NCBI GenBank assembly: GCA_017477425.1
Contig: JAFUVT010000006.1
Coordinates: 2,161 to 66,160 of the forward strand
Reading direction: 5' to 3'
Source of the DNA: Bacteroidales bacterium
Lineage (GTDB): Bacteria > Bacteroidota > Bacteroidia > Bacteroidales > F082
DNA: 64,000 nucleotides
The notes beneath the pieces are model-generated. The model had not been told where the DNA came from. It did no database searches and saw only the letters and a list, made by a program, of their open reading frames with translations. Positions 3,615-14,106 of the stretch are shown in pieces. The first letter of the stretch is position 1, and each line of letters begins with the position of its first letter. Made by a program: the position numbers and the translations under genes.

Positions 3615-4370
3615 TTAGATATGCTCCTCAAAGCCTCTGAAGTGAACATTCAGTTCATGCAGATGCTCCAACAGCGTTCCCAGCGGGGTTCCGGCAGTCA
3701 TCTTGGCAAAGGCGTTGACATCCTTGGGGAAGCACTTACCACCATAACCGAACTTACCGTCAGGGCCGGGGACGTAAGTGTGGGTATCGTTGATATAGCC
3801 AGAAAGCAGCACGCCCGTGTGCACCTTGCGCCAGTCAGCCCCCATTTGCTCGCAGTACTCGCGACAGGCGTTGAAATAGGTGACCTTATAGGCCCCGAAC
3901 ACGTTGTGCATGTACTTGGTGAGCTCTGCCTCTAACGGGGTCATGACGGTAAACTTCTTGCCCACGAAGATCTTGGTGAGCAGTTCGTGGGCTCCGGTGA
4001 AGACCATGGTCTGCTTGCGGAAGTCCTCAAGGTGTGTACGCTCGGTGAGGAACTCGGGCATGTAGCATACCTGATGGCCGTTATCCTTGGAGAGGCGGTC
4101 ACTGGTGCCGGGAAGGATGGTGGTGCGCACGAAGACGGGCACATCGGGGAGCTTGGTGATGAGTTCCTTCATCAGCGTGAGGTCCTGCGTGCCGTCGTCC
4201 TCGGTGGGGACGTGGATCTGCAGGAACGCGATATCGATACCACTCAGGTCATCGTTGTAACCCTTGGGAGGGTCGCTGATGAACAGTTTACACTCGGGGT
4301 TGTTATGCTCCAACCAGTCTTTCAAGGCTCCGCCTACGAAGCCGCATCCGATAATTCCAACGTTAATCAT
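3615..4370 (-). CDS. Short (251 aa) UDP-glucose/GDP-mannose dehydrogenase-family-like protein, copy 1
   Basis: N-terminal Rossmann motif VGIIGCGFVGGAL and the catalytic-Cys motif GYGGKCFPKDVNAF of nucleotide-sugar dehydrogenases. It lacks the usual C-terminal UDP-binding domain. Paralog of 13073..13828. Confidence 0.6.
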   Translation of the reverse strand: MINVGIIGCGFVGGALKDWLEHNNPECKLFISDPPKGYNDDLSGIDIAFLQIHVPTEDDGTQDLTLMKELITKLPDVPVFVRTTILPGTSDRLSKDNGHQVCYMPEFLTERTHLEDFRKQTMVFTGAHELLTKIFVGKKFTVMTPLEAELTKYMHNVFGAYKVTYFNACREYCEQMGADWRKVHTGVLLSGYINDTHTYVPGPDGKFGYGGKCFPKDVNAFAKMTAGTPLGTLLEHLHELNVHFRGFEEHI

Positions 4371-4446
4371 TGTGTGTATGTTTTAGTGTTTATTGTTTTA
4401 GTTAGTTGTTGTTTGGTTAAGAAGAATCAAGGGATATGAATCATGG

Positions 4447-4643
4447 GACGGTTCCTCGATCACTTTTCTCTATTCTAACTTGTTAATCACTCCATAAGTT
4501 ACTCTTGTGAGCCGTGAGAGCTGGCGCAGACCAACACCCAGTTCCAAGTAGCTCATGATAAGCTCGTTTCTCTTATCTTTCTCCAGTTCATGCACCTTTA
4601 TCGGGTCTGCTGCAGAATCGTAGAATCGGGAGACGGTTCCTTG
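4447..4643. repeat. 197-bp direct repeat, copy 1 (partner at 7495..7692)
   Basis: Aligned by eye to 7495..7692, about 90+% identical. Both copies begin and end with GACGGTTCCT. Contains most of the small HTH ORF 4470..4676. Confidence 0.8.
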
Positions 4644-4676: not shown

Positions 4677-4777
4677 GACACAATGTCGCGAAAGATGTCG
4701 CGAAAAACATTGTCGTAATAATCAAAACAAATATTCGCGACACAATGTCGTAAAAAGAGTCGCAATTGTTCTCTTCT

Positions 4778-6298
4778 CTAATCCTTACTATCTTCTGCAA
4801 CGACATAAACGGTTCCCCTTCCTTCACCCCTACGCTCTATTCTTTTCTTTTCAACAAGTGATTTCATCAACCGCTCTGCCGTCTTTTTCTCCAACTTAAG
4901 ATATTCTTCTACATTTTTTCTGGTTGTTTCTCCGTTTAAACGGATAAAGTCAAATGCTTTCCTTTCTTTCTCTGTCAACTTATCTTCACTGACACCCTCA
5001 GTGTTTCGTGACAAAACAAACGAAAGATAAGGTGCTTCCCATTTTGCTACAGGCAGAGGAAAGCTATATACATCAGGCAAATCCCGCATGGTTTTGAACC
5101 CCAAACCTCTCTGCTCAGACAAATTCATAACACCAAACACGAACATCATTCTGGGATTACGACTTATCGTTGGAGCCGAAAAGTTGTTTATTTGTTCCAG
5201 AGTTATAGGTTCTACAGGGTATCCAGGCGACTTTACAACTATCTCACGACTACTGATTGTAAGATAGATTGGAGAACCAGAAATCTCATACTGGCGATGT
5301 ATGATGGCATTGATAAGTACTTCTCTTATCACCTTCAAAGGATAATCATATATGGGTTGTCTTTCCGGGTGCGACCGATCTATTTGCTTGCCTATTTTTT
5401 GTTCATACCATTGATAAGCATTGTCAGGTTGCTTCACCAATGGGCCTACAATGTCGACAATATCACCTTCAGTGCCATCATCATTTATGAATGTAGCCTT
5501 GATGATTGCATTGGGGAACGACACTTCAGGATGCTTTCCGAACAACAATAATCCTGTACCGGACGGAACATACCCATTTTTGGTCGAGACCAAAATGCCA
5601 AATTGTGTAAGCAGCTGCATACATTCCCTCTCACCAAACTTTACATCCCATCCCGCTTTATCCAAAAAGGCTTGAACAAGTTCCGTATCAAGCGATTCAA
5701 GGGTACAATTCTTGACAGGTGCATCAAGCGTGCCTTCTGCCTCTTTCATCTTTTTAGATTCATCTTTTGCGAGTAGGCTCCTTTCGTTTGCCGCATTAAG
5801 GAATTCCGCATTACATTTCCTGATTTCTTCTTGAAGATCTCTGTCAAACAGAGCAACTTCAACGCCATGCGTTTTAAGGTGGTCACAGCCTTTGCCACTG
5901 ACAGTCGGGTCTGGATCTTCTATACCATAATACACTTTGGCAATACGTGCATTAGTAATGCGTTCAGCACACGAAAGCTTCGGTGACTTCCTTGCTCCTG
6001 GAGCACATGGCTCAAGAGTGGCAAATAGTATAGCCCCAGTAAGATTTTGGTCTCTACACTTGCGTTCAATGAGAGTATATTCTGCATGGTCTCCCTCTCG
6101 CAGTTCACCCCGGTAGGCTGTTTCTATGGTTCCATCTGGTTTGACAATAAGTGCACCAACTTTGGGCGTTGGCTTTCCGTCTTCCCTAACTTCGGCTACG
6201 GAGTTCTTCATTACATTCACCACCTCCTCCATATACCTTCTAATCTGTTCCTTCGTCAGTTCTATCATAGTATGTATTAATGTATTGTTACAAATCAA
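4778..6298 (-). CDS. Fusion protein: RibD/CDA-fold zinc deaminase + AlbA_2-like region + HATPase_c_4 (RecG-C-like) + C-terminal winged helix
   Basis: The deaminase has the HAE (DHAEYTLIE) and PC...C (TLEPCAPGARKSPKLSCAE) zinc motifs. GLLLFGKHPEVSFPNAIIKA is AlbA_2-like. REVLINAIIHRQYEISGSPIYL...RNPRMMFVFGVMNLSEQRGLGFKTM matches HATPase_c_4. The C-terminus FDFIRLNGETTRKNVEEYL...RGEGRGTVYVV is a wHTH. The start may be M11 (6268). Confidence 0.7.
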   Translation of the reverse strand: MICNNTLIHTMIELTKEQIRRYMEEVVNVMKNSVAEVREDGKPTPKVGALIVKPDGTIETAYRGELREGDHAEYTLIERKCRDQNLTGAILFATLEPCAPGARKSPKLSCAERITNARIAKVYYGIEDPDPTVSGKGCDHLKTHGVEVALFDRDLQEEIRKCNAEFLNAANERSLLAKDESKKMKEAEGTLDAPVKNCTLESLDTELVQAFLDKAGWDVKFGERECMQLLTQFGILVSTKNGYVPSGTGLLLFGKHPEVSFPNAIIKATFINDDGTEGDIVDIVGPLVKQPDNAYQWYEQKIGKQIDRSHPERQPIYDYPLKVIREVLINAIIHRQYEISGSPIYLTISSREIVVKSPGYPVEPITLEQINNFSAPTISRNPRMMFVFGVMNLSEQRGLGFKTMRDLPDVYSFPLPVAKWEAPYLSFVLSRNTEGVSEDKLTEKERKAFDFIRLNGETTRKNVEEYLKLEKKTAERLMKSLVEKKRIERRGEGRGTVYVVAEDSKD

Positions 6299-6382
6299 TT
6301 TCTTATCTTTGCATCATACCTTTGGCACCTTCGAAAAACAGGGGACGGGGCTTTGATCCGTCAATTGCAATTCGATTCTTTA

Positions 6383-7291
6383 TCATATTTGCAATAAGCC
6401 CCCAAAATCACTTTTCATTCGTTCCAAGGCAAAAGATTCCGATTCTGCCACCTCTCCCAGTGTAGTGTTAACAACTGCCTTGATTGACAAAGAAGGGTCT
6501 TCTGAAAGTAGCCGTATAAACACCTTTGCAATTTTGGAATCCACTCTATATGAAGCAGTGAATTGTTGACCAAATTCAAGTTTTACTGGATAGCTGTTGG
6601 TATCTATTACTGTTAATATGCTGAAAGCATCAGCATTTCCATCAAAGGGTCTTGACATTTTAAAGAAAGGCTCTTGAAAGTATCGATGTTCCTTTGATGA
6701 GTTGGTGACAGTTACCCTGATTTGCAATCCTCTTTTGCCAGAATACATATAATTATATGTCTCAAACACATGGTAAAAACTTAAATAAACTAAGGCCACA
6801 GTATCTTTTCTTTCTCCATGTTTCAATGTTGTCGATCTAAGTACACTAGGAAGCGGCCTCTCGTTTTGCAGAGCCTCTACCATCTCCTTGATAACAGTAT
6901 CGTATTGACTATCATCCGTCATGTCATCGCCTTTCCTGCCTTGAAGAATCGGTGGAAATGACGTCTCGAAAGTTCCTGCCCGTAAGACGGGGTAGTATTT
7001 TGTCGTATCAATATCATTCATCATCTCTGCACCGATAATCGACTCCTCAAATGCCACCCCTTTGCCTGTTTCGGCTTTTTGCTTGTATTGAGGCGTACCA
7101 ATAACCAGAACTTTATCCGCCTTCGACAAGCCAAGCTCCATAAAACGAGTGAAAGAAGAACCCTTGGGCATGTACTGGTCGAGAAGGATTTCAAAACCAC
7201 CCAAGGCCGACAAATCATCGGCAAATTTCTTCACCCATGCTTTATGCTCTTCACTATCGTGTGAATATGAAATAAAAATCACTTTAGCCAT
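6383..7291 (-). CDS. SEFIR/TIR-like domain protein with an uncharacterised ~160-aa C-terminal domain
   Basis: The N-terminus KVIFISYSHDSEEHKAWVKKFADDLSALGGFEILLDQ...VLVIGTPQYKQKA...GVAFEESII...YYPVLRAG matches the bacterial SEFIR/TIR_2 pattern. AT-rich. Confidence 0.7.
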   Translation of the reverse strand: MAKVIFISYSHDSEEHKAWVKKFADDLSALGGFEILLDQYMPKGSSFTRFMELGLSKADKVLVIGTPQYKQKAETGKGVAFEESIIGAEMMNDIDTTKYYPVLRAGTFETSFPPILQGRKGDDMTDDSQYDTVIKEMVEALQNERPLPSVLRSTTLKHGERKDTVALVYLSFYHVFETYNYMYSGKRGLQIRVTVTNSSKEHRYFQEPFFKMSRPFDGNADAFSILTVIDTNSYPVKLEFGQQFTASYRVDSKIAKVFIRLLSEDPSLSIKAVVNTTLGEVAESESFALERMKSDFGGLLQI

Positions 7292-7494
7292 ATTTCTATT
7301 ATTTCAGTTACAAAACACAGATCGGGGTCTGGCTTTTTGCTTGTTTTCCCTGTTATTGCCCTAAGCTATTTATTTCTTTAAAAGTCTCTGTCAAGCGTTC
7401 AACCTACCAGGAGCCGACTTTCCCATGAGCTTTTCTTCAGATGTTCGGACATCTATCTGAATATTAAAAATTGGATCATGAATCAGAATCAGAA

Positions 7495-7692
7495 GACGGT
7501 TCCTCGATCACTCTTCTCCAATCTAACTTGTTAATCACTCCATAAGTTACTCTTGTGAGCCGTGAGAGCTGGCGCAGACCAACACCCAGTTCCAAGTAGC
7601 TCGTGATAAGCTCGTTTCTCTTATCTTTTTCCAGTTCTTGCACCTTTATCGGGTCTGCTGCAGAATCGCAGAATCAGGGGACGGTTCCTTGA
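7495..7692. repeat. 197-bp direct repeat, copy 2 (degenerate copy of the HTH ORF, no ATG start)
   Basis: Aligns with 4447..4643. The reading frame is retained (..DPIKVQELEKDKRNELITSYLELGVGLRQLSRLTRVTYGVINKLD..), but both Met start codons of copy 1 (M1 and the internal M41, which reads ITSYLELG here) and the stop are changed. Confidence 0.8.
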
Positions 7693-7706: not shown

Positions 7707-7997
7707 TCAGTTATCCTTCAAAGCAGAAAGTATGCCCACTCTTATGCTAGTTTTTATCTGTTCTGTTGCCGAAACGATAACGACTTTTTCAAAAAAGCTA
7801 GCTTGCCCCATTTTTTTACAAAGCTGTCCAAATATCTGTTTGGCACAGAAAGTGGCCATTGTTTTAACATCTTGCATGTCAATTGTTACAGAACCTTCTT
7901 CTTCAATGCAATCGCTAATTGTCTTGTATATTCTACTGCCCAGTTCTTCGTCACTGATTATAGTTCCAAAATCTTTTATTATTATTATCGTGTTCAT
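7707..7997 (-). CDS. 96-aa STAS-like (DUF4325-like) protein, cassette A
   Basis: Small alpha/beta-type sequence with an IDMQDV motif followed by Thr49. Its start overlaps the stop of the upstream ATPase gene (ATGA). Same length and motif layout as 11652..11942. Confidence 0.6.
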   Translation of the reverse strand: MNTIIIIKDFGTIISDEELGSRIYKTISDCIEEEGSVTIDMQDVKTMATFCAKQIFGQLCKKMGQASFFEKVVIVSATEQIKTSIRVGILSALKDN

Positions 7998-8938
7998 TGA
8001 AAATTGATTAATAAGTCATTTAATTGTTCATTGTTTTTTTCGATATCATCAATCGTAATCGGATTAGTCAAAAAGAGTTTTACATACACTATTGTCCCAT
8101 GCCATGTCGCAGAAGTGTAAAAACGCGTTTTGCCTGCCATGTTCTCATAGCAATACTCTTCTGACCGCAATAAGAATCGGCTTCCCGATTTGGTGACTAT
8201 TTCGTTGATAAGCCACAACCCATACCCCATGTGGTTGCTACCTTTTTTTGAGGTTACGTCTTTTTTTAATGCCATCTTCAACGCATCTTCTTTTTTGCAA
8301 CGCGGAAATGCATCTGTAATGCTTTTTACAACCCCTTCGCCAGAATCGGCACATGCAATCTCAATCATTTCCTGGTTTCCATGGGCAACAATAACAGACT
8401 TCGAGTCGCCCAAGGCATGAGCCCAGAAGTTCAAAAACATCTCTGAAAAAACAGTGAAGATCATCGCGTTGACCTTATGATTATGATAATAACCCTCAAT
8501 CTTCCGCGAATAATCGTTATTCAAGTAGTCGGAAGAGCTGGTCTCCTTCAGTAATGCCATAGGAGCGATGATAAAATCATCGGAAACACTTACCTGTAAG
8601 TTTTTGTATTGTCTATCTGAATCCTTGTTTTTCTTCAAGTCGTCTATTAAATTTTTGAACCCATAGTAGGCCACTCGGTCTCTAATAGTTCTGTTTTCTT
8701 CATAATTCAGAAGACAAGGGTTGAAAAAACACTTGTTGACAACTGAATAATCCAAAAACTTATATAGGATAAGCAGCCCTAATAAGTCAAGTTCGACCAC
8801 GTCTTGAAAATCCAAGTAGAAAGAATGCTTTTGTAATTGTTTGTATCTATAAAAACAGCCTAACTTTCTTATGATTTCGTCATCGTAGTTTTTGACCATC
8901 CTGCTTGGAACCTTTAATATTGTAGGGCTATTGGCCAT
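7994..8938 (-). CDS. GHKL (histidine-kinase-like/SpoIIAB-RsbW-like) ATPase with an N-terminal STAS-like region, cassette A
   Basis: Bergerat-fold boxes: N box SEMFLNFWAHA, G1 ADSGEGV, G2 GYGLWLINEI. The N-terminal LDFQDVVELDLLGLLILYKF is STAS-like. Overlaps both neighbouring genes. Confidence 0.65.
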   Translation of the reverse strand: MANSPTILKVPSRMVKNYDDEIIRKLGCFYRYKQLQKHSFYLDFQDVVELDLLGLLILYKFLDYSVVNKCFFNPCLLNYEENRTIRDRVAYYGFKNLIDDLKKNKDSDRQYKNLQVSVSDDFIIAPMALLKETSSSDYLNNDYSRKIEGYYHNHKVNAMIFTVFSEMFLNFWAHALGDSKSVIVAHGNQEMIEIACADSGEGVVKSITDAFPRCKKEDALKMALKKDVTSKKGSNHMGYGLWLINEIVTKSGSRFLLRSEEYCYENMAGKTRFYTSATWHGTIVYVKLFLTNPITIDDIEKNNEQLNDLLINFQ

Positions 8939-9422
8939 AGTACAATTTATGGTATTCGTCGAATAATTTTTCTTCCTTTTTTAGATCTTTTTTTGTTAAA
9001 TCTGAATTAATCCTTTTATAATAGTCCAGAATGGTTATTGAATGATGATATATTTTCTTTGAATAGAAAATCCTGTTTTTCGACATAAGACATTCCACAT
9101 TGGAAATGTTATCTAGCAATGTATGTTCTTCTCCCTTTGTAAACAGCGATATCTTTTCCAATTTTTCAAACAATTCAGCTTCTTTTTCAATTGATAATTC
9201 CGTGATTTTCCTTGTCCTATAATGCTCGTTTTCCTTCTTGCCGTTACTTCTATCCAAGAAAAACTTCACTATTATCAAAAGAAGATTTATCAGAACTATA
9301 ACAAGAATCCATATAGAAGAACCTGTCCAACTGCTATTACTTACTTCATTTGATACCGAATCTGAATTCATAGAAGTAAATTGCTCAACGCCTATTTGTA
9401 TTAAAACCAGTAAATTGTTCAT
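8928..9422 (-). CDS. Single-pass membrane protein with a charged helical cytoplasmic tail, cassette A
   Basis: 164 aa. One TM helix (IWILVIVLINLLLIIVKFFL) followed by a K/E-rich helical region. 11-nt overlap with the downstream ATPase gene. No homology recognised. Confidence 0.5.
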   Translation of the reverse strand: MNNLLVLIQIGVEQFTSMNSDSVSNEVSNSSWTGSSIWILVIVLINLLLIIVKFFLDRSNGKKENEHYRTRKITELSIEKEAELFEKLEKISLFTKGEEHTLLDNISNVECLMSKNRIFYSKKIYHHSITILDYYKRINSDLTKKDLKKEEKLFDEYHKLYYGQ

Positions 9423-9618: not shown

Positions 9619-9690
9619 ATAAATTGATTCAGAATCCATTTTTTGGTCCTTTTTGGTCCTTTTGGTCTGAAACGTCTTCTGCAAATATAG
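9619..9690 (-). promoter_or_regulatory. Promoter-leader module A (TATATTTG -7 box plus conserved leader hairpin)
   Basis: The minus strand reads TATATTTGCAGAAGAC..TTCAGACC..GGACCAAAAAGGACCAAAAAATGGATTCTGAATCAATTTAT. The -7 box is the reverse complement of 9682..9689. The same module occurs at 12851..12920 and 14021..14090. Confidence 0.5.
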
Positions 9691-9742
9691 TAAAAAAACT
9701 GGGTCATAAACAAACAAATTATTGGTCGGTTTTTTGCTTTTC

Positions 9743-9806
9743 AAGCCGCCTCCCACAGATGCCCGCTCTCCCATGGGCCCACGTTGGCATGACATGGGAG
9801 GCTAAC
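9743..9806. repeat. 64-bp hairpin repeat element, copy a (type 1 centre)
   Basis: CAAGCCGCCTCCCACAGATGCCCGCTCTCCCATGGGCCCACGTTGGCATGACATGGGAGGCTAAC. The arms GCCTCCCA/TGGGAGGC and ATGCC/GGCAT can pair. Confidence 0.8.
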
Positions 9807-9856
9807 TGTCAGCCATCCGTTAATTCTTTGGACACAGCGCTTCTTAATGATAAACT

Positions 9857-10072
9857 TCATACCTTTGCGTATTCCTCATGGATGGCAGCGTGAACCATAG
9901 CACGTGCCTCTTCAATACTCATTGTCTCTTCATCTTCCATTCGCATTTGCTGCATACGGTGGTCAACAAGTTCCTGTGCCCATAGGCGAATGGCTGCCGT
10001 GGTGTCCAGCTCCGGGCGCATGTCCCGAAGCGCAGCCTCATCGACGTTTATACTTACCATGCACATAGTCAA
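9857..10072 (-). CDS. Hypothetical 71-aa acidic protein
   Basis: GC3-rich ORF. A TAACTTTG -7 box (reverse complement of 10093..10100) lies about 20 nt upstream of its ATG. No confident family assignment. Confidence 0.35.
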   Translation of the reverse strand: MTMCMVSINVDEAALRDMRPELDTTAAIRLWAQELVDHRMQQMRMEDEETMSIEEARAMVHAAIHEEYAKV

Positions 10073-10164
10073 ATCGATTTATGTTTGTTTTTGCAAAGTT
10101 ACTACTTTTCAATCTCATTCAGAGGAATCAAGGAATCAGGGGAAGATTCCTTTGTCCATTTTTT

Positions 10165-10229
10165 CAAGCCGCCTCCCATAGATGCCCGCTCTCACACAAG
10201 CCTGCATCGGCATGACATGGGAGGCTAAC
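10165..10229. repeat. 64-bp hairpin repeat element, copy b (type 2 centre)
   Basis: CAAGCCGCCTCCCATAGATGCCCGCTCTCACACAAGCCTGCATCGGCATGACATGGGAGGCTAAC. Ends 3 nt before the epimerase stop codon. Confidence 0.8.
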
Positions 10230-10232
10230 CGA

Positions 10233-11276: not shown

Positions 11277-11326
11277 GCTTTGTTTTTGTTAAGAATCAAG
11301 AATCAGGGGTCGGTTCCTTGATCCGC

Positions 11327-11463
11327 TATCCGCCTCCCCCAGATACCCGCTCTCCCTCGGGCCCACGTTGGCATGACATGGGAGGCTAACTTCCAACTGA
11401 ACAACTGAACAACTCCCAACTAAAATACAGCTTCGCTCCGTCAGTCACATTCCGTGGTGACAA
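11327..11463. repeat. Composite repeat: hairpin element copy c + (CAACTGAA)2 + conserved leader block
   Basis: TATCCGCCTCCCCCAGATACCCGC...GGCATGACATGGGAGGCTAAC, then TTCCAACTGAACAACTGAACAACTCCCAACTAAAA, then CAGCTTCGCTCCGTCAGTCACATTCCGTGGTGACAA. Collinear with 13859..14006. Confidence 0.8.
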
Positions 11464-11651
11464 GGGTTTGGTATTTAATGAGTTATAAACTCTGTTCACA
11501 ACAAGGTATTGAAGATGAACTTTGTTCTTATCGTGCAAAGATAAGGATTTATTTTTTGAGAATTGAAAAAAATTACCAACACTCATGAGCGGGACAACCA
11601 GCTTCCGCAATTTCACAAAACATACGGTCAAAAACTTTCGCCATCAACCTA

Positions 11652-11942
11652 TCATGCAGTAACCCCATACTTGACAATATAATCTCTAAGACGCATAGCT
11701 TGTTGTTTGGTAATCATTGTAAATACCATATTATTCTTCAACTTGTCTACCCCCCACTCGTCAATAAGTCGGCCTATAGACACATTCAAGAAGACCGAAG
11801 GCAATGCGGTAACGTCTGACATGTCAACAATAACCTTATCAGAATCCTCCATTCCTTTCACAATCTGTGAATAAAACAAGTTGCCCGCTTCGGGTAGCAG
11901 TGTCGAGGAATCCATTATGTCCTTTAATACTATTGTACACAT
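11652..11942 (-). CDS. 96-aa STAS-like (DUF4325-like) protein, cassette B
   Basis: VDMSDV motif at residues 39-44 followed by Ser49, the same layout as 7707..7997. Lies downstream of the GHKL ATPase gene. AT-rich. Confidence 0.6.
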   Translation of the reverse strand: MCTIVLKDIMDSSTLLPEAGNLFYSQIVKGMEDSDKVIVDMSDVTALPSVFLNVSIGRLIDEWGVDKLKNNMVFTMITKQQAMRLRDYIVKYGVTA

Positions 11943-12026
11943 GTTTTTTATCTATTTAGTTAAAAAAATCAAATTCATCAATAATTTCCTCATCATCCAT
12001 TTGAGACAAGTCTATCTCATAATATA

Positions 12027-12839
12027 TTAGTGCCCAGGGAAAGACATCTCACAATAAAAGCCTTCAATAATTCCATCATGCTTGTAAACCAATCCGTTAT
12101 GGCTAAATATCCTTGCTTCCTTCGCTGGAGCTATGATAATACTTAATCCCATACCTTTGTTTCTATCCGTCGATTTCACCGTGAAATTATCTTCCAGAGC
12201 TTTAAGGATAGCATCTTTATCGTTTGTTATATCTTTGTCAAAATCACTTACAGATTGCGCAATTCCTATGCCAAAATCGGAAACTGCAACATGTAAAATG
12301 CTTGTTTCTTTGTCATATTGAATCAAAGAAAACGCATTCCCTTTAGCATGTGCATGATCAAAAACATTATAATAAGCTTCAACCAAACCAACAGAAACTA
12401 CACTTAAATCCTTGTTTGTAAAATATGTTCTTCTTAAGTATTCCTCTACTCGTTTTGCATATAAGTCTTTCTCGGGTTCTGTAATTCTCCACAAATTGAA
12501 AACGCTCTCATGAGTTGGTGCTTCTACATAATTCTTCCCTCCTCTCCAATATTCCGAAAACCCCAAATCCTTATATATATACTGAAAAACATCTTGGTTA
12601 TTCTTAGAAATAAACACATTCATTTTAAGGTCAATCAAAAAATGAATCAAGCAAGCAAGAGTAACCAAATGAAATGGTTTGATTTTATCAGGAGCGATAG
12701 CTGTATCAAAGTCAAATACAATGTCATGAGTTGATATGACACCACTATGGCAATTATACTCATTATGAACTTTTGTTATGGTCTCAAGCCAATAACTTCT
12801 TTCGGTATTTTGAAACACTATCTTCGTTTCTCTTTTCAT
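12027..12839 (-). CDS. GHKL (SpoIIAB/RsbW-like) ATPase with an N-terminal STAS-like region, cassette B
   Basis: N box LVEAYYNVFDHAHAKG, G1 VSDFGIGIAQSV, G2 DRNKGMGLSIIIA. The N-terminal IVFDFDTAIAPDKIKPFHLVTLACLIHFL is STAS-like. 270 aa. Confidence 0.65.
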   Translation of the reverse strand: MKRETKIVFQNTERSYWLETITKVHNEYNCHSGVISTHDIVFDFDTAIAPDKIKPFHLVTLACLIHFLIDLKMNVFISKNNQDVFQYIYKDLGFSEYWRGGKNYVEAPTHESVFNLWRITEPEKDLYAKRVEEYLRRTYFTNKDLSVVSVGLVEAYYNVFDHAHAKGNAFSLIQYDKETSILHVAVSDFGIGIAQSVSDFDKDITNDKDAILKALEDNFTVKSTDRNKGMGLSIIIAPAKEARIFSHNGLVYKHDGIIEGFYCEMSFPGH

Positions 12840-12850
12840 AGCATCACTAG

Positions 12851-12920
12851 ATAAGTTGACTCAGAATCCATTTTTGGTCCATTTTGGTCCATTTCATCTG
12901 AATTGTCTTCCGCAAATATA
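12851..12920 (-). promoter_or_regulatory. Promoter-leader module B
   Basis: The minus strand reads TATATTTGCGGAAGACAATTCAGATGAAATGGACCAAAATGGACCAAAAATGGATTCTGAGTCAACTTAT and ends 12 nt before the ATG at 12839. The -7 box is the reverse complement of 12913..12920. Confidence 0.5.
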
Positions 12921-12974
12921 GTGAGAAAAGCTGTGACACAAACAAATTTTTTGGGTGGTTTTTTTGTGTTTTCC

Positions 12975-13036
12975 TATCCGCCTCCCCTAGATGCCCGCTC
13001 TCACACAAGCCTACGTCGGCATGACACGGGAGGTTG
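12975..13036. repeat. 64-bp hairpin repeat element, copy d (type 2 centre)
   Basis: TATCCGCCTCCCCTAGATGCCCGCTCTCACACAAGCCTACGTCGGCATGACACGGGAGGTTGC. Confidence 0.8.
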
Positions 13037-13072
13037 CGGACAATGGTTCCAAGCAGCGGAATAGACTTGAAA

Positions 13073-13828
13073 CTAAATGTGTTCCTCCACGCCCCTGAAA
13101 TGCACATTCAACTCATGAAGATGCTCCAAAAGTGTTCCGAGCGAAGTGCCCTCGGTCATCTTGGCGAAGGCGTTCACGTCCTTCGGGAAGCACTTGCCAC
13201 CGTAGCCGTATTTGCCATCGGGACCAGGGACGTAGGTATGCGTGTCGTTGATATAGCCAGAGAGCAACACACCCGTGTGCACCTTGCGCCAGTCGGCACC
13301 CATCTGCTCGCAGTACTCACGGCAGGCGTTGAAATAAGTCACCTTGTAGGCGCCGAAGACGTTGTGCATGTACTTGGTCAGCTCGGCCTCCAACGGGGTC
13401 ATCACGGTGAACTTCTTGCCGACGAAGATCTTGGTGAGCAGCTCGTGGGCACCGGTGAAGACCATCGTCTGCTTCTTGAAGTCTTCGATGAAGGTGCGCT
13501 CGGTCAGGAACTCGGGCATGTAGCACACCTGATGATGGGTCTCCCGCGAAAGCATCTCGCTGGTGCCTGGAAGGATGGTGGTGCGCACAAACACGGGCAC
13601 GTCCGGAAGCTTGGTGATGAGCTCCTTCATCAGCGTCAAGTCCTGCGAACCGTCGTCCTCGGTGGGGACATGGATCTGCAGAAAAGCAATGTCGATATTA
13701 CTCAAGTCATCATTATACCCCTTGGGCGGGTCGCTGATGAACAGTTTGCACTCTGGGTTGTTGTGTTCCAACCAGTCCTTGAGGGCTCCGCCTACGAAGC
13801 CACATCCGATAATTCCAACGTTAATCAT
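13073..13828 (-). CDS. Short (251 aa) UDP-glucose/GDP-mannose dehydrogenase-family-like protein, copy 2
   Basis: Same length as 3615..4370 and differs at only about 15-20 residues. The DNA differs mostly at third codon positions, so both copies appear to be under purifying selection. Confidence 0.6.
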   Translation of the reverse strand: MINVGIIGCGFVGGALKDWLEHNNPECKLFISDPPKGYNDDLSNIDIAFLQIHVPTEDDGSQDLTLMKELITKLPDVPVFVRTTILPGTSEMLSRETHHQVCYMPEFLTERTFIEDFKKQTMVFTGAHELLTKIFVGKKFTVMTPLEAELTKYMHNVFGAYKVTYFNACREYCEQMGADWRKVHTGVLLSGYINDTHTYVPGPDGKYGYGGKCFPKDVNAFAKMTEGTSLGTLLEHLHELNVHFRGVEEHI

Positions 13829-13858
13829 ATTTTTATTAAATTGTTATTTTTCAAAATC

Positions 13859-14006
13859 CAAGCCGCCCCCCCCACAGATGCCCGCTCTCCCTCGGGCCGA
13901 GGCTGGCATGACATGGGAGGTTAACTTCCAACTGAACAACTGAACAACTGAACAACTCCCAACTAAAACACAGCTTCGCCAGGTCGGTCACATTCCATAA
14001 CGACAA
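13859..14006. repeat. Composite repeat: hairpin element copy e + (CAACTGAA)3 + conserved leader block
   Basis: Collinear with 11327..11463 but carries one extra octamer unit. Confidence 0.8.
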
Positions 14007-14020
14007 CTCCCTGTTTTCCA

Positions 14021-14090
14021 ATAAATTGATTCAGAATCCAACATAGGTTCTTATTGGCTTTATCTTTCTGAATACGTTCCCGCAAAAATA
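14021..14090 (-). promoter_or_regulatory. Promoter-leader module C
   Basis: The minus strand reads TATTTTTGCGGGAACGTATTCAGAAAG...GGATTCTGAATCAATTTAT (ATTCAGAA/TTCTGAAT stem). The -7 box is the reverse complement of 14083..14090. Confidence 0.45.
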
Positions 14091-14106
14091 GAAAAAAAAT
14101 AAATAC

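Follow-up and report, generated by a model that had tools for sequence, protein, structure and literature searches.

A frameshifted kinase-STAS gene pair in a Bacteroidales polysaccharide locus is probably the remnant of an effector-less member of the CapK/VapK-CapS/VapS superfamily

Two related defence systems, CapK-CapS and VapKSC, have recently defined a kinase-STAS phospho-switch that has either a winged helix-turn-helix (wHTH) repressor or a PIN toxin as its output (Chambers et al., EMBO J 2026, PMC13373217). CapK has the architecture HTH-STAS-GHKL and CapS is a STAS-wHTH protein; when activated by single-stranded DNA (ssDNA), CapK phosphorylates CapS at Ser54 and immune operons are de-repressed. 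In VapKSC the kinase VapK is STAS-GHKL, the antitoxin VapS is a STAS domain with a C-terminal helix, and VapC is the PIN toxin; the VapS helix (residues 94-116) blocks VapC (VapS-VapC structure, PDB 9z7o), the toxin is set free by the phospho-mimic VapS S48E, and protection by VapKSC amounts to about 2 logs against one Escherichia coli phage, Bas42. An aromatic residue in the STAS domain of the kinase (W68 in CapK, F54 in VapK) contacts ssDNA, and the N-box asparagine of CapK is N218 (PMC13373217). Here we compare these systems with cassette B, a kinase gene (K_B) followed by a STAS gene (S_B) in a 64,000-nucleotide (nt) stretch of a Bacteroidales contig (JAFUVT010000006.1; "the window"), and with its neighbor, cassette A.

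Cassettes A and B both belong to the CapK/VapK-CapS/VapS, or K-S, superfamily, and the K-S phospho-switch is the closest known kind of system; cassette B is probably a two-gene member, and its copy in this genome is probably in decay, a remnant in which the STAS gene has been orphaned. In the list of open reading frames (ORFs), K_B (12027..12839, minus strand) is a 270 amino acid (aa) protein with an N-terminal STAS-like domain and a SpoIIAB-like GHKL kinase domain, and S_B (11652..11942, minus strand) is an intact 96-aa bare STAS protein (DUF4325) with a predicted phospho-acceptor at Ser49. Cassette A, on the same strand, has three genes, which encode a 164-aa single-pass membrane protein that is a candidate effector (8928..9422; hydrophobic stretch SIWILVIVLINLLLIIVKFFL), a full-length 314-aa STAS-like and GHKL kinase, K_A (7994..8938), and a 96-aa bare STAS (DUF4325) protein with Thr49, S_A (7707..7997), whose start overlaps the K_A stop by 4 nt. 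The original prediction, made from the letters of the sequence, described the 270-aa and 96-aa ORFs 84 nt apart, the K_B motifs LVEAYYNVFDHAHAKG, VSDFGIGI, GMGLSII and IVFDFD...FHLVTLACLIHFL, the matching register of the small proteins (VDMSDV at residues 39-44 and Ser49 in S_B; IDMQDV at 39-44 and Thr49 in S_A) and the lack of a transmembrane (TM) protein gene in cassette B, and we find all of these as given there.

The kinase assignment is supported by families, by residues and by fold. K_B matches Pfam HATPase_c_2 (E 1.4e-6, 28.8 bits against a cut-off of 27.4), K_A matches HATPase_c and HATPase_c_2 below the cut-off (about 7e-4; 20 against 27.4), and both fall into the same PHROG, phrog_3364 (E 1.3e-20 for K_B and 4.3e-22 for K_A). 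The catalytic boxes of K_B are invariant among its homologs (N-box E154/N158, G1 D188-G190-G192, G2 G229-G231); in the family of K_A, E166/H174, D198/G202, G238/G240 and G281 are invariant, and N170 and G200 nearly so. An AlphaFold2 (AF2) model of P0010, a full-length protein 73% identical to K_B, was obtained with a predicted local distance difference test (pLDDT) score of 86 and a predicted template-modelling (pTM) score of 0.87, and has an N-terminal beta-alpha-beta-alpha-beta-alpha-alpha domain, strand 1 of which begins at residue 8, followed by the GHKL domain. In a Foldseek search of the PDB the best matches of this GHKL domain are SpoIIAB structures (1l0o, 1tid and 1til; E 3e-6, template-modelling score 0.70), with RsbW ranked lower. 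The N-terminal domain, about residues 1-105 in K_B, had been called STAS-like by eye, and the call holds with modest support: modelled alone (pLDDT 82), its best PDB match is the STAS protein RsbS (probability 0.98, template-modelling score 0.53-0.56, E only 0.11), and the kinase is homologous to a VapK-like kinase (below). An hhalign comparison of the kinase N-terminal domain with the S profile gave only an 18-column match at 1.9% probability, so the relatedness of the two STAS-like domains is unproven and the STAS call rests on the fold search and the VapK-like homology.

The small proteins are homologous to VapS. Both match Pfam DUF4325 ("STAS-like") above its cut-off of 23 (S_B, E 4.8e-10, 39.4; S_A, E 1.6e-7, 31.3), and the S profile matches PDB 9z7o ("Escherichia VapS") at E 1.5e-13. 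Position 49 is Ser or Thr in 124/124 S sequences and lies in the column of VapS Ser48, so the earlier reading of Ser49/Thr49 as a conserved predicted phospho-acceptor position is borne out by the alignment; Gly57 is invariant. Nearly all S homologs are of similar size, 119/120 having 82-106 aa and most 92-102 aa. We also note that S_B and S_A match positions ~344-435 of the 441-aa profile phrog_5816, and that a VapK-like kinase (L024, 3033-3935) matches positions ~178-312; these matches suggest that K and S are joined into a single polypeptide in some phages, and such a fusion would be a Rosetta-stone argument that the two are functionally coupled.

For a direct comparison with a VapK-like protein we used a K/STAS/PIN operon on Deinococcus gobiensis plasmid P5, which was found with the VapS sequence and identified by its gene content, not from the dataset of PMC13373217. 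Its kinase aligns with the family-B kinase profile by hhalign at 97.4% probability (E 1.2e-11, 202 columns), from STAS helix 2 through the GHKL domain to the GT strand near the C-terminus; it matches P0010 by BLASTP at E 1e-8 and phrog_3364 at E 1.4e-41, and a direct BLASTP of K_A against it is not significant. Strand 3 of family-B kinases ends in a conserved Phe (LxF; F43 in K_B) and their helix 2 is capped by a PFH motif, and a 10-residue loop insertion blurs the alignment with the Deinococcus kinase in this region.

Cassettes A and B share with VapKSC the STAS and GHKL architecture of a ~290-300 aa kinase that is homologous to the kinase of the K/STAS/PIN operon and falls into the same PHROG, an S protein homologous to VapS with the phospho-acceptor Ser/Thr column in common, the placement of S directly after K, and an occurrence in defence islands. 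They differ in that neither cassette nor the adjacent ORFs contain a PIN/VapC gene (Pfam, ORF list), that S_A and S_B lack the C-terminal helix (residues 94-116) of VapS (the Deinococcus VapS-like protein has 121 aa), that cassette A carries an upstream single-pass membrane protein while cassette B has no third gene, that the hosts here are Bacteroidota, and that K_B is truncated in this copy. With CapK-CapS they have in common a GHKL kinase with a STAS domain, a conserved Ser on the STAS partner encoded just downstream, and location in defence loci; however, the N-terminal HTH of CapK and the C-terminal wHTH of CapS are both lacking (Pfam; AF2 model), and no conserved downstream immune operon is seen in the cassette loci. 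The kinase-domain fold, the STAS substrate and the phospho-serine position are also those of SpoIIAB-SpoIIAA and RsbW-RsbV, from which the cassettes differ by having no sigma factor or PP2C gene, by the extra fused STAS-like domain, and by their mobile and sporadic occurrence. There are two annotation-level mentions of DUF4325 as a modular partner of different effectors: a PIN.4 subgroup of VapC is "transcriptionally coupled to DUF4325" (Matelska et al., NAR 2017, PMC5499597), and the Francisella prophage KIRK has a trio of a 293-aa protein, a DUF4325 protein and a TM gene (PMC7924643), which resembles cassette A in its gene sizes and TM protein as likened by description, not by sequence.

With no PIN gene, wHTH or VapS C-terminal helix, neither cassette form fits an existing named system. 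The window shows two further K-S architectures side by side in Bacteroidota, TM-K-S (cassette A) and K-S only (cassette B). PMC13373217 makes no mention of membrane-linked or effector-less forms, of Bacteroidota or of DUF4325, and we found no description of TM-linked or effector-less K-S forms in the literature searched. The stand-alone form raises the question of what a sensor-kinase and a bare STAS protein do on their own. We regard the locus as of moderate interest: the undescribed TM-linked and stand-alone architectures merit attention, and this particular copy, being probably a remnant, has lower value as an experimental subject.

The two architectures are separate subfamilies that, on the sequence comparisons given here and below, were independently acquired. 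In family A the TM-K-S operon is conserved from gut Bacteroidales to Pontibacter and Flavobacteriaceae, with K and S spaced between a 4-nt overlap and 1 nt; in each family-A locus examined K is preceded by one of a set of homologous 153-163-aa proteins, most of which have one obvious hydrophobic helix, and most of the 56 family-A kinase homologs have 298-336 aa (two are shorter, 226 and 278 aa). Family B is a widespread effector-less pair. In 14/14 species-representative genomes, which include Segatella bryantii, Alistipes, Rikenella and other Bacteroidales and one labelled Paratractidigestivibacter that may be mis-binned, K is followed within 4-14 nt by a 92-99-aa S; adjacency of K and S was found in every other family-B locus scanned, with a spacing of 4-20 nt over all of them. 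Cultured strains that carry an intact family-B pair are Segatella bryantii DSM 11371 (L011), Bacteroides salyersiae (P0069) and Parabacteroides chinchillae (P0066). No conserved third gene is present in the family-B loci examined, and the downstream genes differ in every locus. The pair is also carried by 18 IMG/VR viral contigs (Bacteroidales prophage-like), and in one of the three that were inspected, L070, it follows tail-fibre, holin-like and endolysin genes, a typical "moron" position. Defence-type neighbors in the related loci are HEC-01A/B, PDC-M29A, PDC-S05, Menshen-like NsnB/C and GmrSD, and other neighbors there include an FRG-domain protein, SocA/Panacea and an integrase.

The 84 nt between the K_B and S_B ORFs are not a spacer; translations and protein and DNA alignments show that they are the frameshifted 3′ end of the kinase gene. 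The K_B frame breaks off just after Gly269 (FPGH-stop), and the adjacent frame runs on as ALIYYEIDLSQMDDEEIIDEFDFFN-stop, so that the displaced 3′ end occupies 11956..12033 (minus strand). A 1-nt deletion lies at ~12030-12035: the window and Logan contig L001 read CCTGG-GCACTAA where the related loci L064 and L066 read CCTGGCAC(A/G)CTAATA, a single base being missing. All full-length homologs continue past the end of K_B with ...FPGTLIYYEIDLSxMDDEEIIxEFDFFN (pattern ...FPGTLIYYEIDLS..DEEI..EF..), and with the frame repaired the ancestral stop falls at 11956-11958, leaving 13 nt to the start codon of S_B, a spacing like that of the relatives. The part lost comprises the GT motif, in which Gly is invariant and Thr nearly invariant (GT has become GH-stop), the last conserved strand and the conserved acidic tail. 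Mapped onto the AF2 model of P0010, the lost residues include about half of the last beta-strand of the GHKL fold, which belongs to the long beta-hairpin at its end. Among 5.8 billion proteins we found 97 K_B homologs, the complete ones having ~285-308 aa and 97-100% query coverage and a minority being shorter or of lower coverage, and a profile search of 1.84 billion representatives gave 138 cluster representatives (50% identity) at E<1e-30, of which nearly all full-length ones are ~280-305 aa long and cover the profile as far as its C-terminus.

The identical truncated K_B protein is present on three short Logan contigs from different sequencing runs, all of which end exactly at the flanking repeats; its recurrence in three independent runs indicates a real allele rather than an assembly error. 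From these alignments, K_B in this genome is quite probably inactive, a probable pseudogene beside an intact S_B. Broken kinase genes with an intact S gene occur in three lineages, the window, L017 (internal deletion) and L088/L089 (mid-gene frameshift, on 18 contigs), and since K is dead and S intact in each, it is excluded that S is a toxin neutralised by K; only that polarity is excluded. The pattern is compatible with a harmful K and S as its antidote.

Apart from the lesion, the C-termini of family-B kinases (e.g., window 11956-12033 out of frame; P0010 residues 282-298) form an acidic-hydrophobic tail, MDDEEIIxEFDFF, that is of low confidence in the model. It resembles the tails of SSB-type proteins, and it is pure speculation that it could be an ssDNA-mimicking auto-inhibitory element.

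By analogy with CapK-CapS and VapKSC, an intact cassette might work as follows. K, which joins a STAS-like sensor domain to a GHKL serine kinase of SpoIIAB type, would be switched on by an infection or DNA-damage cue, possibly ssDNA as for CapK, and would then phosphorylate S at Ser49/Thr49, and phospho-S would let go of the partner that it holds. In cassette A the most plausible partner would be the membrane protein of the same operon, held by its cytoplasmic domain; once released, it would damage the membrane. In family B, where there is no third gene, wHTH or VapS helix, the output would be either K itself or a factor encoded elsewhere. Our preferred guess is a toxin-antitoxin-like arrangement: K would have an activity that inhibits growth, and S would keep it in check as long as S is unphosphorylated. 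We favor this K-toxin/S-antitoxin logic only tentatively; a sensor pair acting on an unlinked factor is almost as likely, and other arrangements take up the remaining probability. More specifically, the family-B pair might be a complete two-gene abortive-infection or toxin-antitoxin switch in which the SpoIIAB-like K is itself the effector and S a phospho-labile antitoxin, a proposal we hold as doubtful; K, after phosphorylating and shedding S, would sequester or phosphorylate a host factor that is essential, for example the primary sigma factor. A corollary is that the orphaned intact S_B, behind the same leader as cassette A, could live on as a decoy substrate and so tune or blunt signalling by K_A. 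The pair probably travels as a two-gene unit without a promoter, between defence islands of Bacteroidales, viral contigs of prophage-like type and ordinary sites in chromosomes, and here it probably landed in a polysaccharide-locus hotspot behind a locally repeated promoter-leader.

The promoter-leaders of the two cassettes are nearly alike, as had been noticed: copy B (12851..12929) and copy A (9619..9698), both on the minus strand, are 85% identical over 80 nt (blastn E 1.6e-19). Copy B has a -7 box, TATATTTG, with upstream TTTG boxes, tandem GGACCAAAA units and an imperfect GATTCTGAGTC palindrome. We take the box to be of the Bacteroidetes type (presumed consensus TAnnTTTG/TTTG), and the promoter is a predicted one. 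In both leaders (9619-9675 and 12851-12905, minus strand) two to three GGACCAAAA(A)(T/G) units repeat in tandem every 9-11 nt and are followed by a GATTCTGAATC palindrome (GATTCTGAGTC in copy B), with the palindrome consensus GATTCTGA(A/G)TC, and the units and palindrome could be operator sites for some regulator. The view of the leader as a dedicated element shared by both cassettes did not survive, since a third, more diverged copy (14021..14099, minus strand; 63-76% identity; -7 box TATTTTTG) lies upstream of repeats D5 and D1 and an unrelated gene for a 251-aa UDP-glucose-dehydrogenase-like protein (13073-13828), and DNA homology to other genomes stops at the cassette coding sequences; the module is thus not specific to the cassettes. 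Among the family-B loci checked, the leader was found neither in the syntenic L064 nor in L004 and L065-L069. A metagenome scan for the leader core ACTATATTTGCRGAAGAC gave 39 matches, all of 18-24 nt save one weak 31-nt match at 87%; these are generic and -7-box-like, in roughly the number expected by chance, and the leader was not found outside this lineage. Judged from its occurrence, it is a repeat of this locus that supplies predicted transcription to whatever lands there and not an element of the K-S family.

The interpretation of cassette B as the remnant of a K-S pair has to be weighed against other explanations, the nearest being that the frameshifted K_B still functions, or that its frame is restored in translation, and that cassette B is a working system here. 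The truncation spares the STAS-like domain as well as the N, G1 and G2 boxes; the allele recurs in at least three sequencing runs and so persists in a population; and both the promoter-leader and S_B are intact. We nevertheless consider this unlikely: the C-terminal GTLIY strand and acidic tail are present in all other complete family-B homologs examined and in nearly all full-length representatives, position 269 is always Gly and the Thr that should follow it is nearly invariant, the AF2 model puts the lost residues in the terminal beta-hairpin, and independent kinase-gene lesions occur in other lineages (L017, L088/L089). A programmed frameshift at the lesion was also considered and was rejected, direct reading of the sequence at CCCTGGGCACTAA revealing no X XXY YYZ slippery heptamer. 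Several points do count against our interpretation of the cassette as a whole. K_B, with its three boxes kept, might retain some function; the ssDNA-contacting aromatic of CapK/VapK is not confidently placed in K_B; PADLOC has no model for either cassette; and what we say of the activating signal, of Ser49 phosphorylation and of the output is drawn by analogy. In addition, the 3:0 excess of K over S lesions is not significant given a K:S length ratio of 3:1 (p ~0.42), and these statistics, tried as a sign that the toxin decays first, are compatible with that idea and are not evidence for it.

Two further explanations concern what the pair does. It is very unlikely to be a CapKS-like transcriptional regulator in which S represses its neighborhood, for instance the downstream epimerase gene or the shared leader, and K relieves the repression. 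CapK-CapS do work as a regulator (PMC13373217), and the tandem GGACCAAAA units and GATTCTGAATC palindrome of the leader are possible operators; S, however, is a bare 96-aa STAS protein without a wHTH, K has no N-terminal HTH, the downstream genes vary in every locus, and the leader does not accompany the cassette in L004 and L064-L069. A housekeeping anti-sigma/anti-anti-sigma partner-switching module of the SpoIIAB-SpoIIAA or RsbW-RsbV type would agree with the SpoIIAB and lower-ranked RsbW structural matches, with the label "anti-sigma regulatory factor" that the Joint Genome Institute (JGI) gives to some homologs, and with a weak NCBIfam spIIAB match. That match scores 18.6 against a cut-off of 135, and NCBIfam has no equivalog for the cassettes; no sigma-factor or PP2C phosphatase gene is found in the cassette or its repeat-bearing flanks, the neighbors in related loci are variable and none beside the pair is annotated as a sigma factor or phosphatase, and the distribution is sporadic and mobile, in defence islands and on viral contigs, all of which makes this explanation highly improbable. 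As to origin, the original prediction had two paralogous, diverged modules, and would have failed had the cassettes proved to belong to unrelated families; the shared Pfam and PHROG families and significant BLASTP matches show that they are related, as distant members of one superfamily, and this part of it stands. Local tandem duplication followed by rapid diversification under conflict-driven selection, on the other hand, is scarcely credible, even though the cassettes are on one strand, within 5 kb of sequence, and their leaders are 85% identical. K_A and K_B are 27% identical over 110 aa by BLASTP (GHKL core only, E 8e-8), a MAFFT alignment that takes in all of K_A puts its identity to family B at 21%, S_A and S_B are 26% identical over 88 aa (BLASTP E 3e-6), and each cassette has relatives elsewhere that are 76-77% identical, which argues for independent acquisition. 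The homology hit lists of the two families do not overlap, their operon architectures differ and are each conserved across Bacteroidota families, and the leader they share also precedes an unrelated gene and is absent from the same loci named above.

The alternative of cassettes recruited to one hotspot, also raised in the original prediction, fits the data. In L004 and L064, whose flanking genes are ~79-80% identical to those of the window, a full-length family-B pair occupies the same slot, after a pnuC-like gene (NMN, or nicotinamide mononucleotide, transporter family) and the 251-aa gene. In L066-L069 the pair lies between aspS/DUF6016 and an M23 peptidase gene, and nucleotide homology to the window spans only the two coding sequences (12820 to 11665), which indicates that the mobile unit is the promoterless gene pair. 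The locus also illustrates promoterless cassettes slotted behind a reusable, predicted local promoter in a polysaccharide-locus hotspot, and the decay of such a cassette.

Both cassettes lie in a low-GC mosaic of ~8.7 kb (38-47% GC against ~55% in the flanks) between two copies of the 251-aa UDP-glucose-dehydrogenase-like gene (3615-4370 and 13073-13828) in a polysaccharide locus. UDPG dehydrogenase is among the genes near the mosaic, and other nearby genes are, as we read their sequences by eye, presumably Wzx-like (flippase) and glycosyltransferase-like. The two 251-aa copies (UDP-glucose/GDP-mannose-dehydrogenase-like, minus strand) share a 300-nt stretch that is 83% identical, and recombination between polysaccharide-locus copies may have given rise to the island. 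Cassette B and its repeat flanks are adjoined by one of these dehydrogenase-like genes on one side and an epimerase gene on the other. The context is a defence island, in which two defence-type genes lie beside cassette A on the minus strand (4778-6298 and 6383-7291); one of them encodes a bSEFIR/TIR protein (PADLOC bSEFIR, E 2.6e-40), and the other a 506-aa protein that combines a cytidine/dCMP-deaminase domain with a Schlafen-associated HATPase_c_4 region and, at the C-terminus, a wHTH.

The D1 repeat, a ~60-70-nt hairpin (CCTCCCATGTCATGCC...GCGGGCATCTnnGGGAGG), brackets each unit of the island, namely the 251-aa gene, cassette B, the epimerase gene, a 71-aa ORF and cassette A. Its only copies in the window are five on the minus strand: 9717-9807, 10140-10230, 11301-11391 (downstream of cassette B and preceded by a D5 repeat at 11394-11463; the three Logan contigs stop here), 12949-13039 (upstream of the cassette-B promoter) and 13836-13926. 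L064 has it at 4755-4829, 4914-4985 and 11280-11354. RNAalifold on eight copies gives 15 pairs, four with compensatory changes, and Rfam has no RNA family matching D1, the other repeats or the cassettes. D1 may be a recombination or boundary element resembling repetitive extragenic palindromic (REP) sequences, or a structured RNA; integron attC sites were considered and rejected, there being no integrase and the copies being conserved in sequence, and we leave it as a REP-like hairpin.

Finally, the island has some smaller features. The 71-aa ORF is acidic (MTMCMVSINVDEAALRDMRPELDTT..., 9857-10072, minus strand), stands alone between two D1 repeats like a mini-cassette, and has no Pfam or PHROG family. 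Just downstream of S_B, a 35-nt segment (~11529-11563, minus strand) contains a second Bacteroidetes-like -7 box, TATCTTTG, which from its position may drive the D5/D1/epimerase unit; this segment is an inverted repeat of 6284-6318, directly upstream of the deaminase gene. A 206-nt direct repeat of 94% identity is present downstream of the deaminase gene (4438-4643) and downstream of cassette A (7486-7691), where it overlaps a 55-aa ORF (7476-7643) that resembles an HTH fragment.

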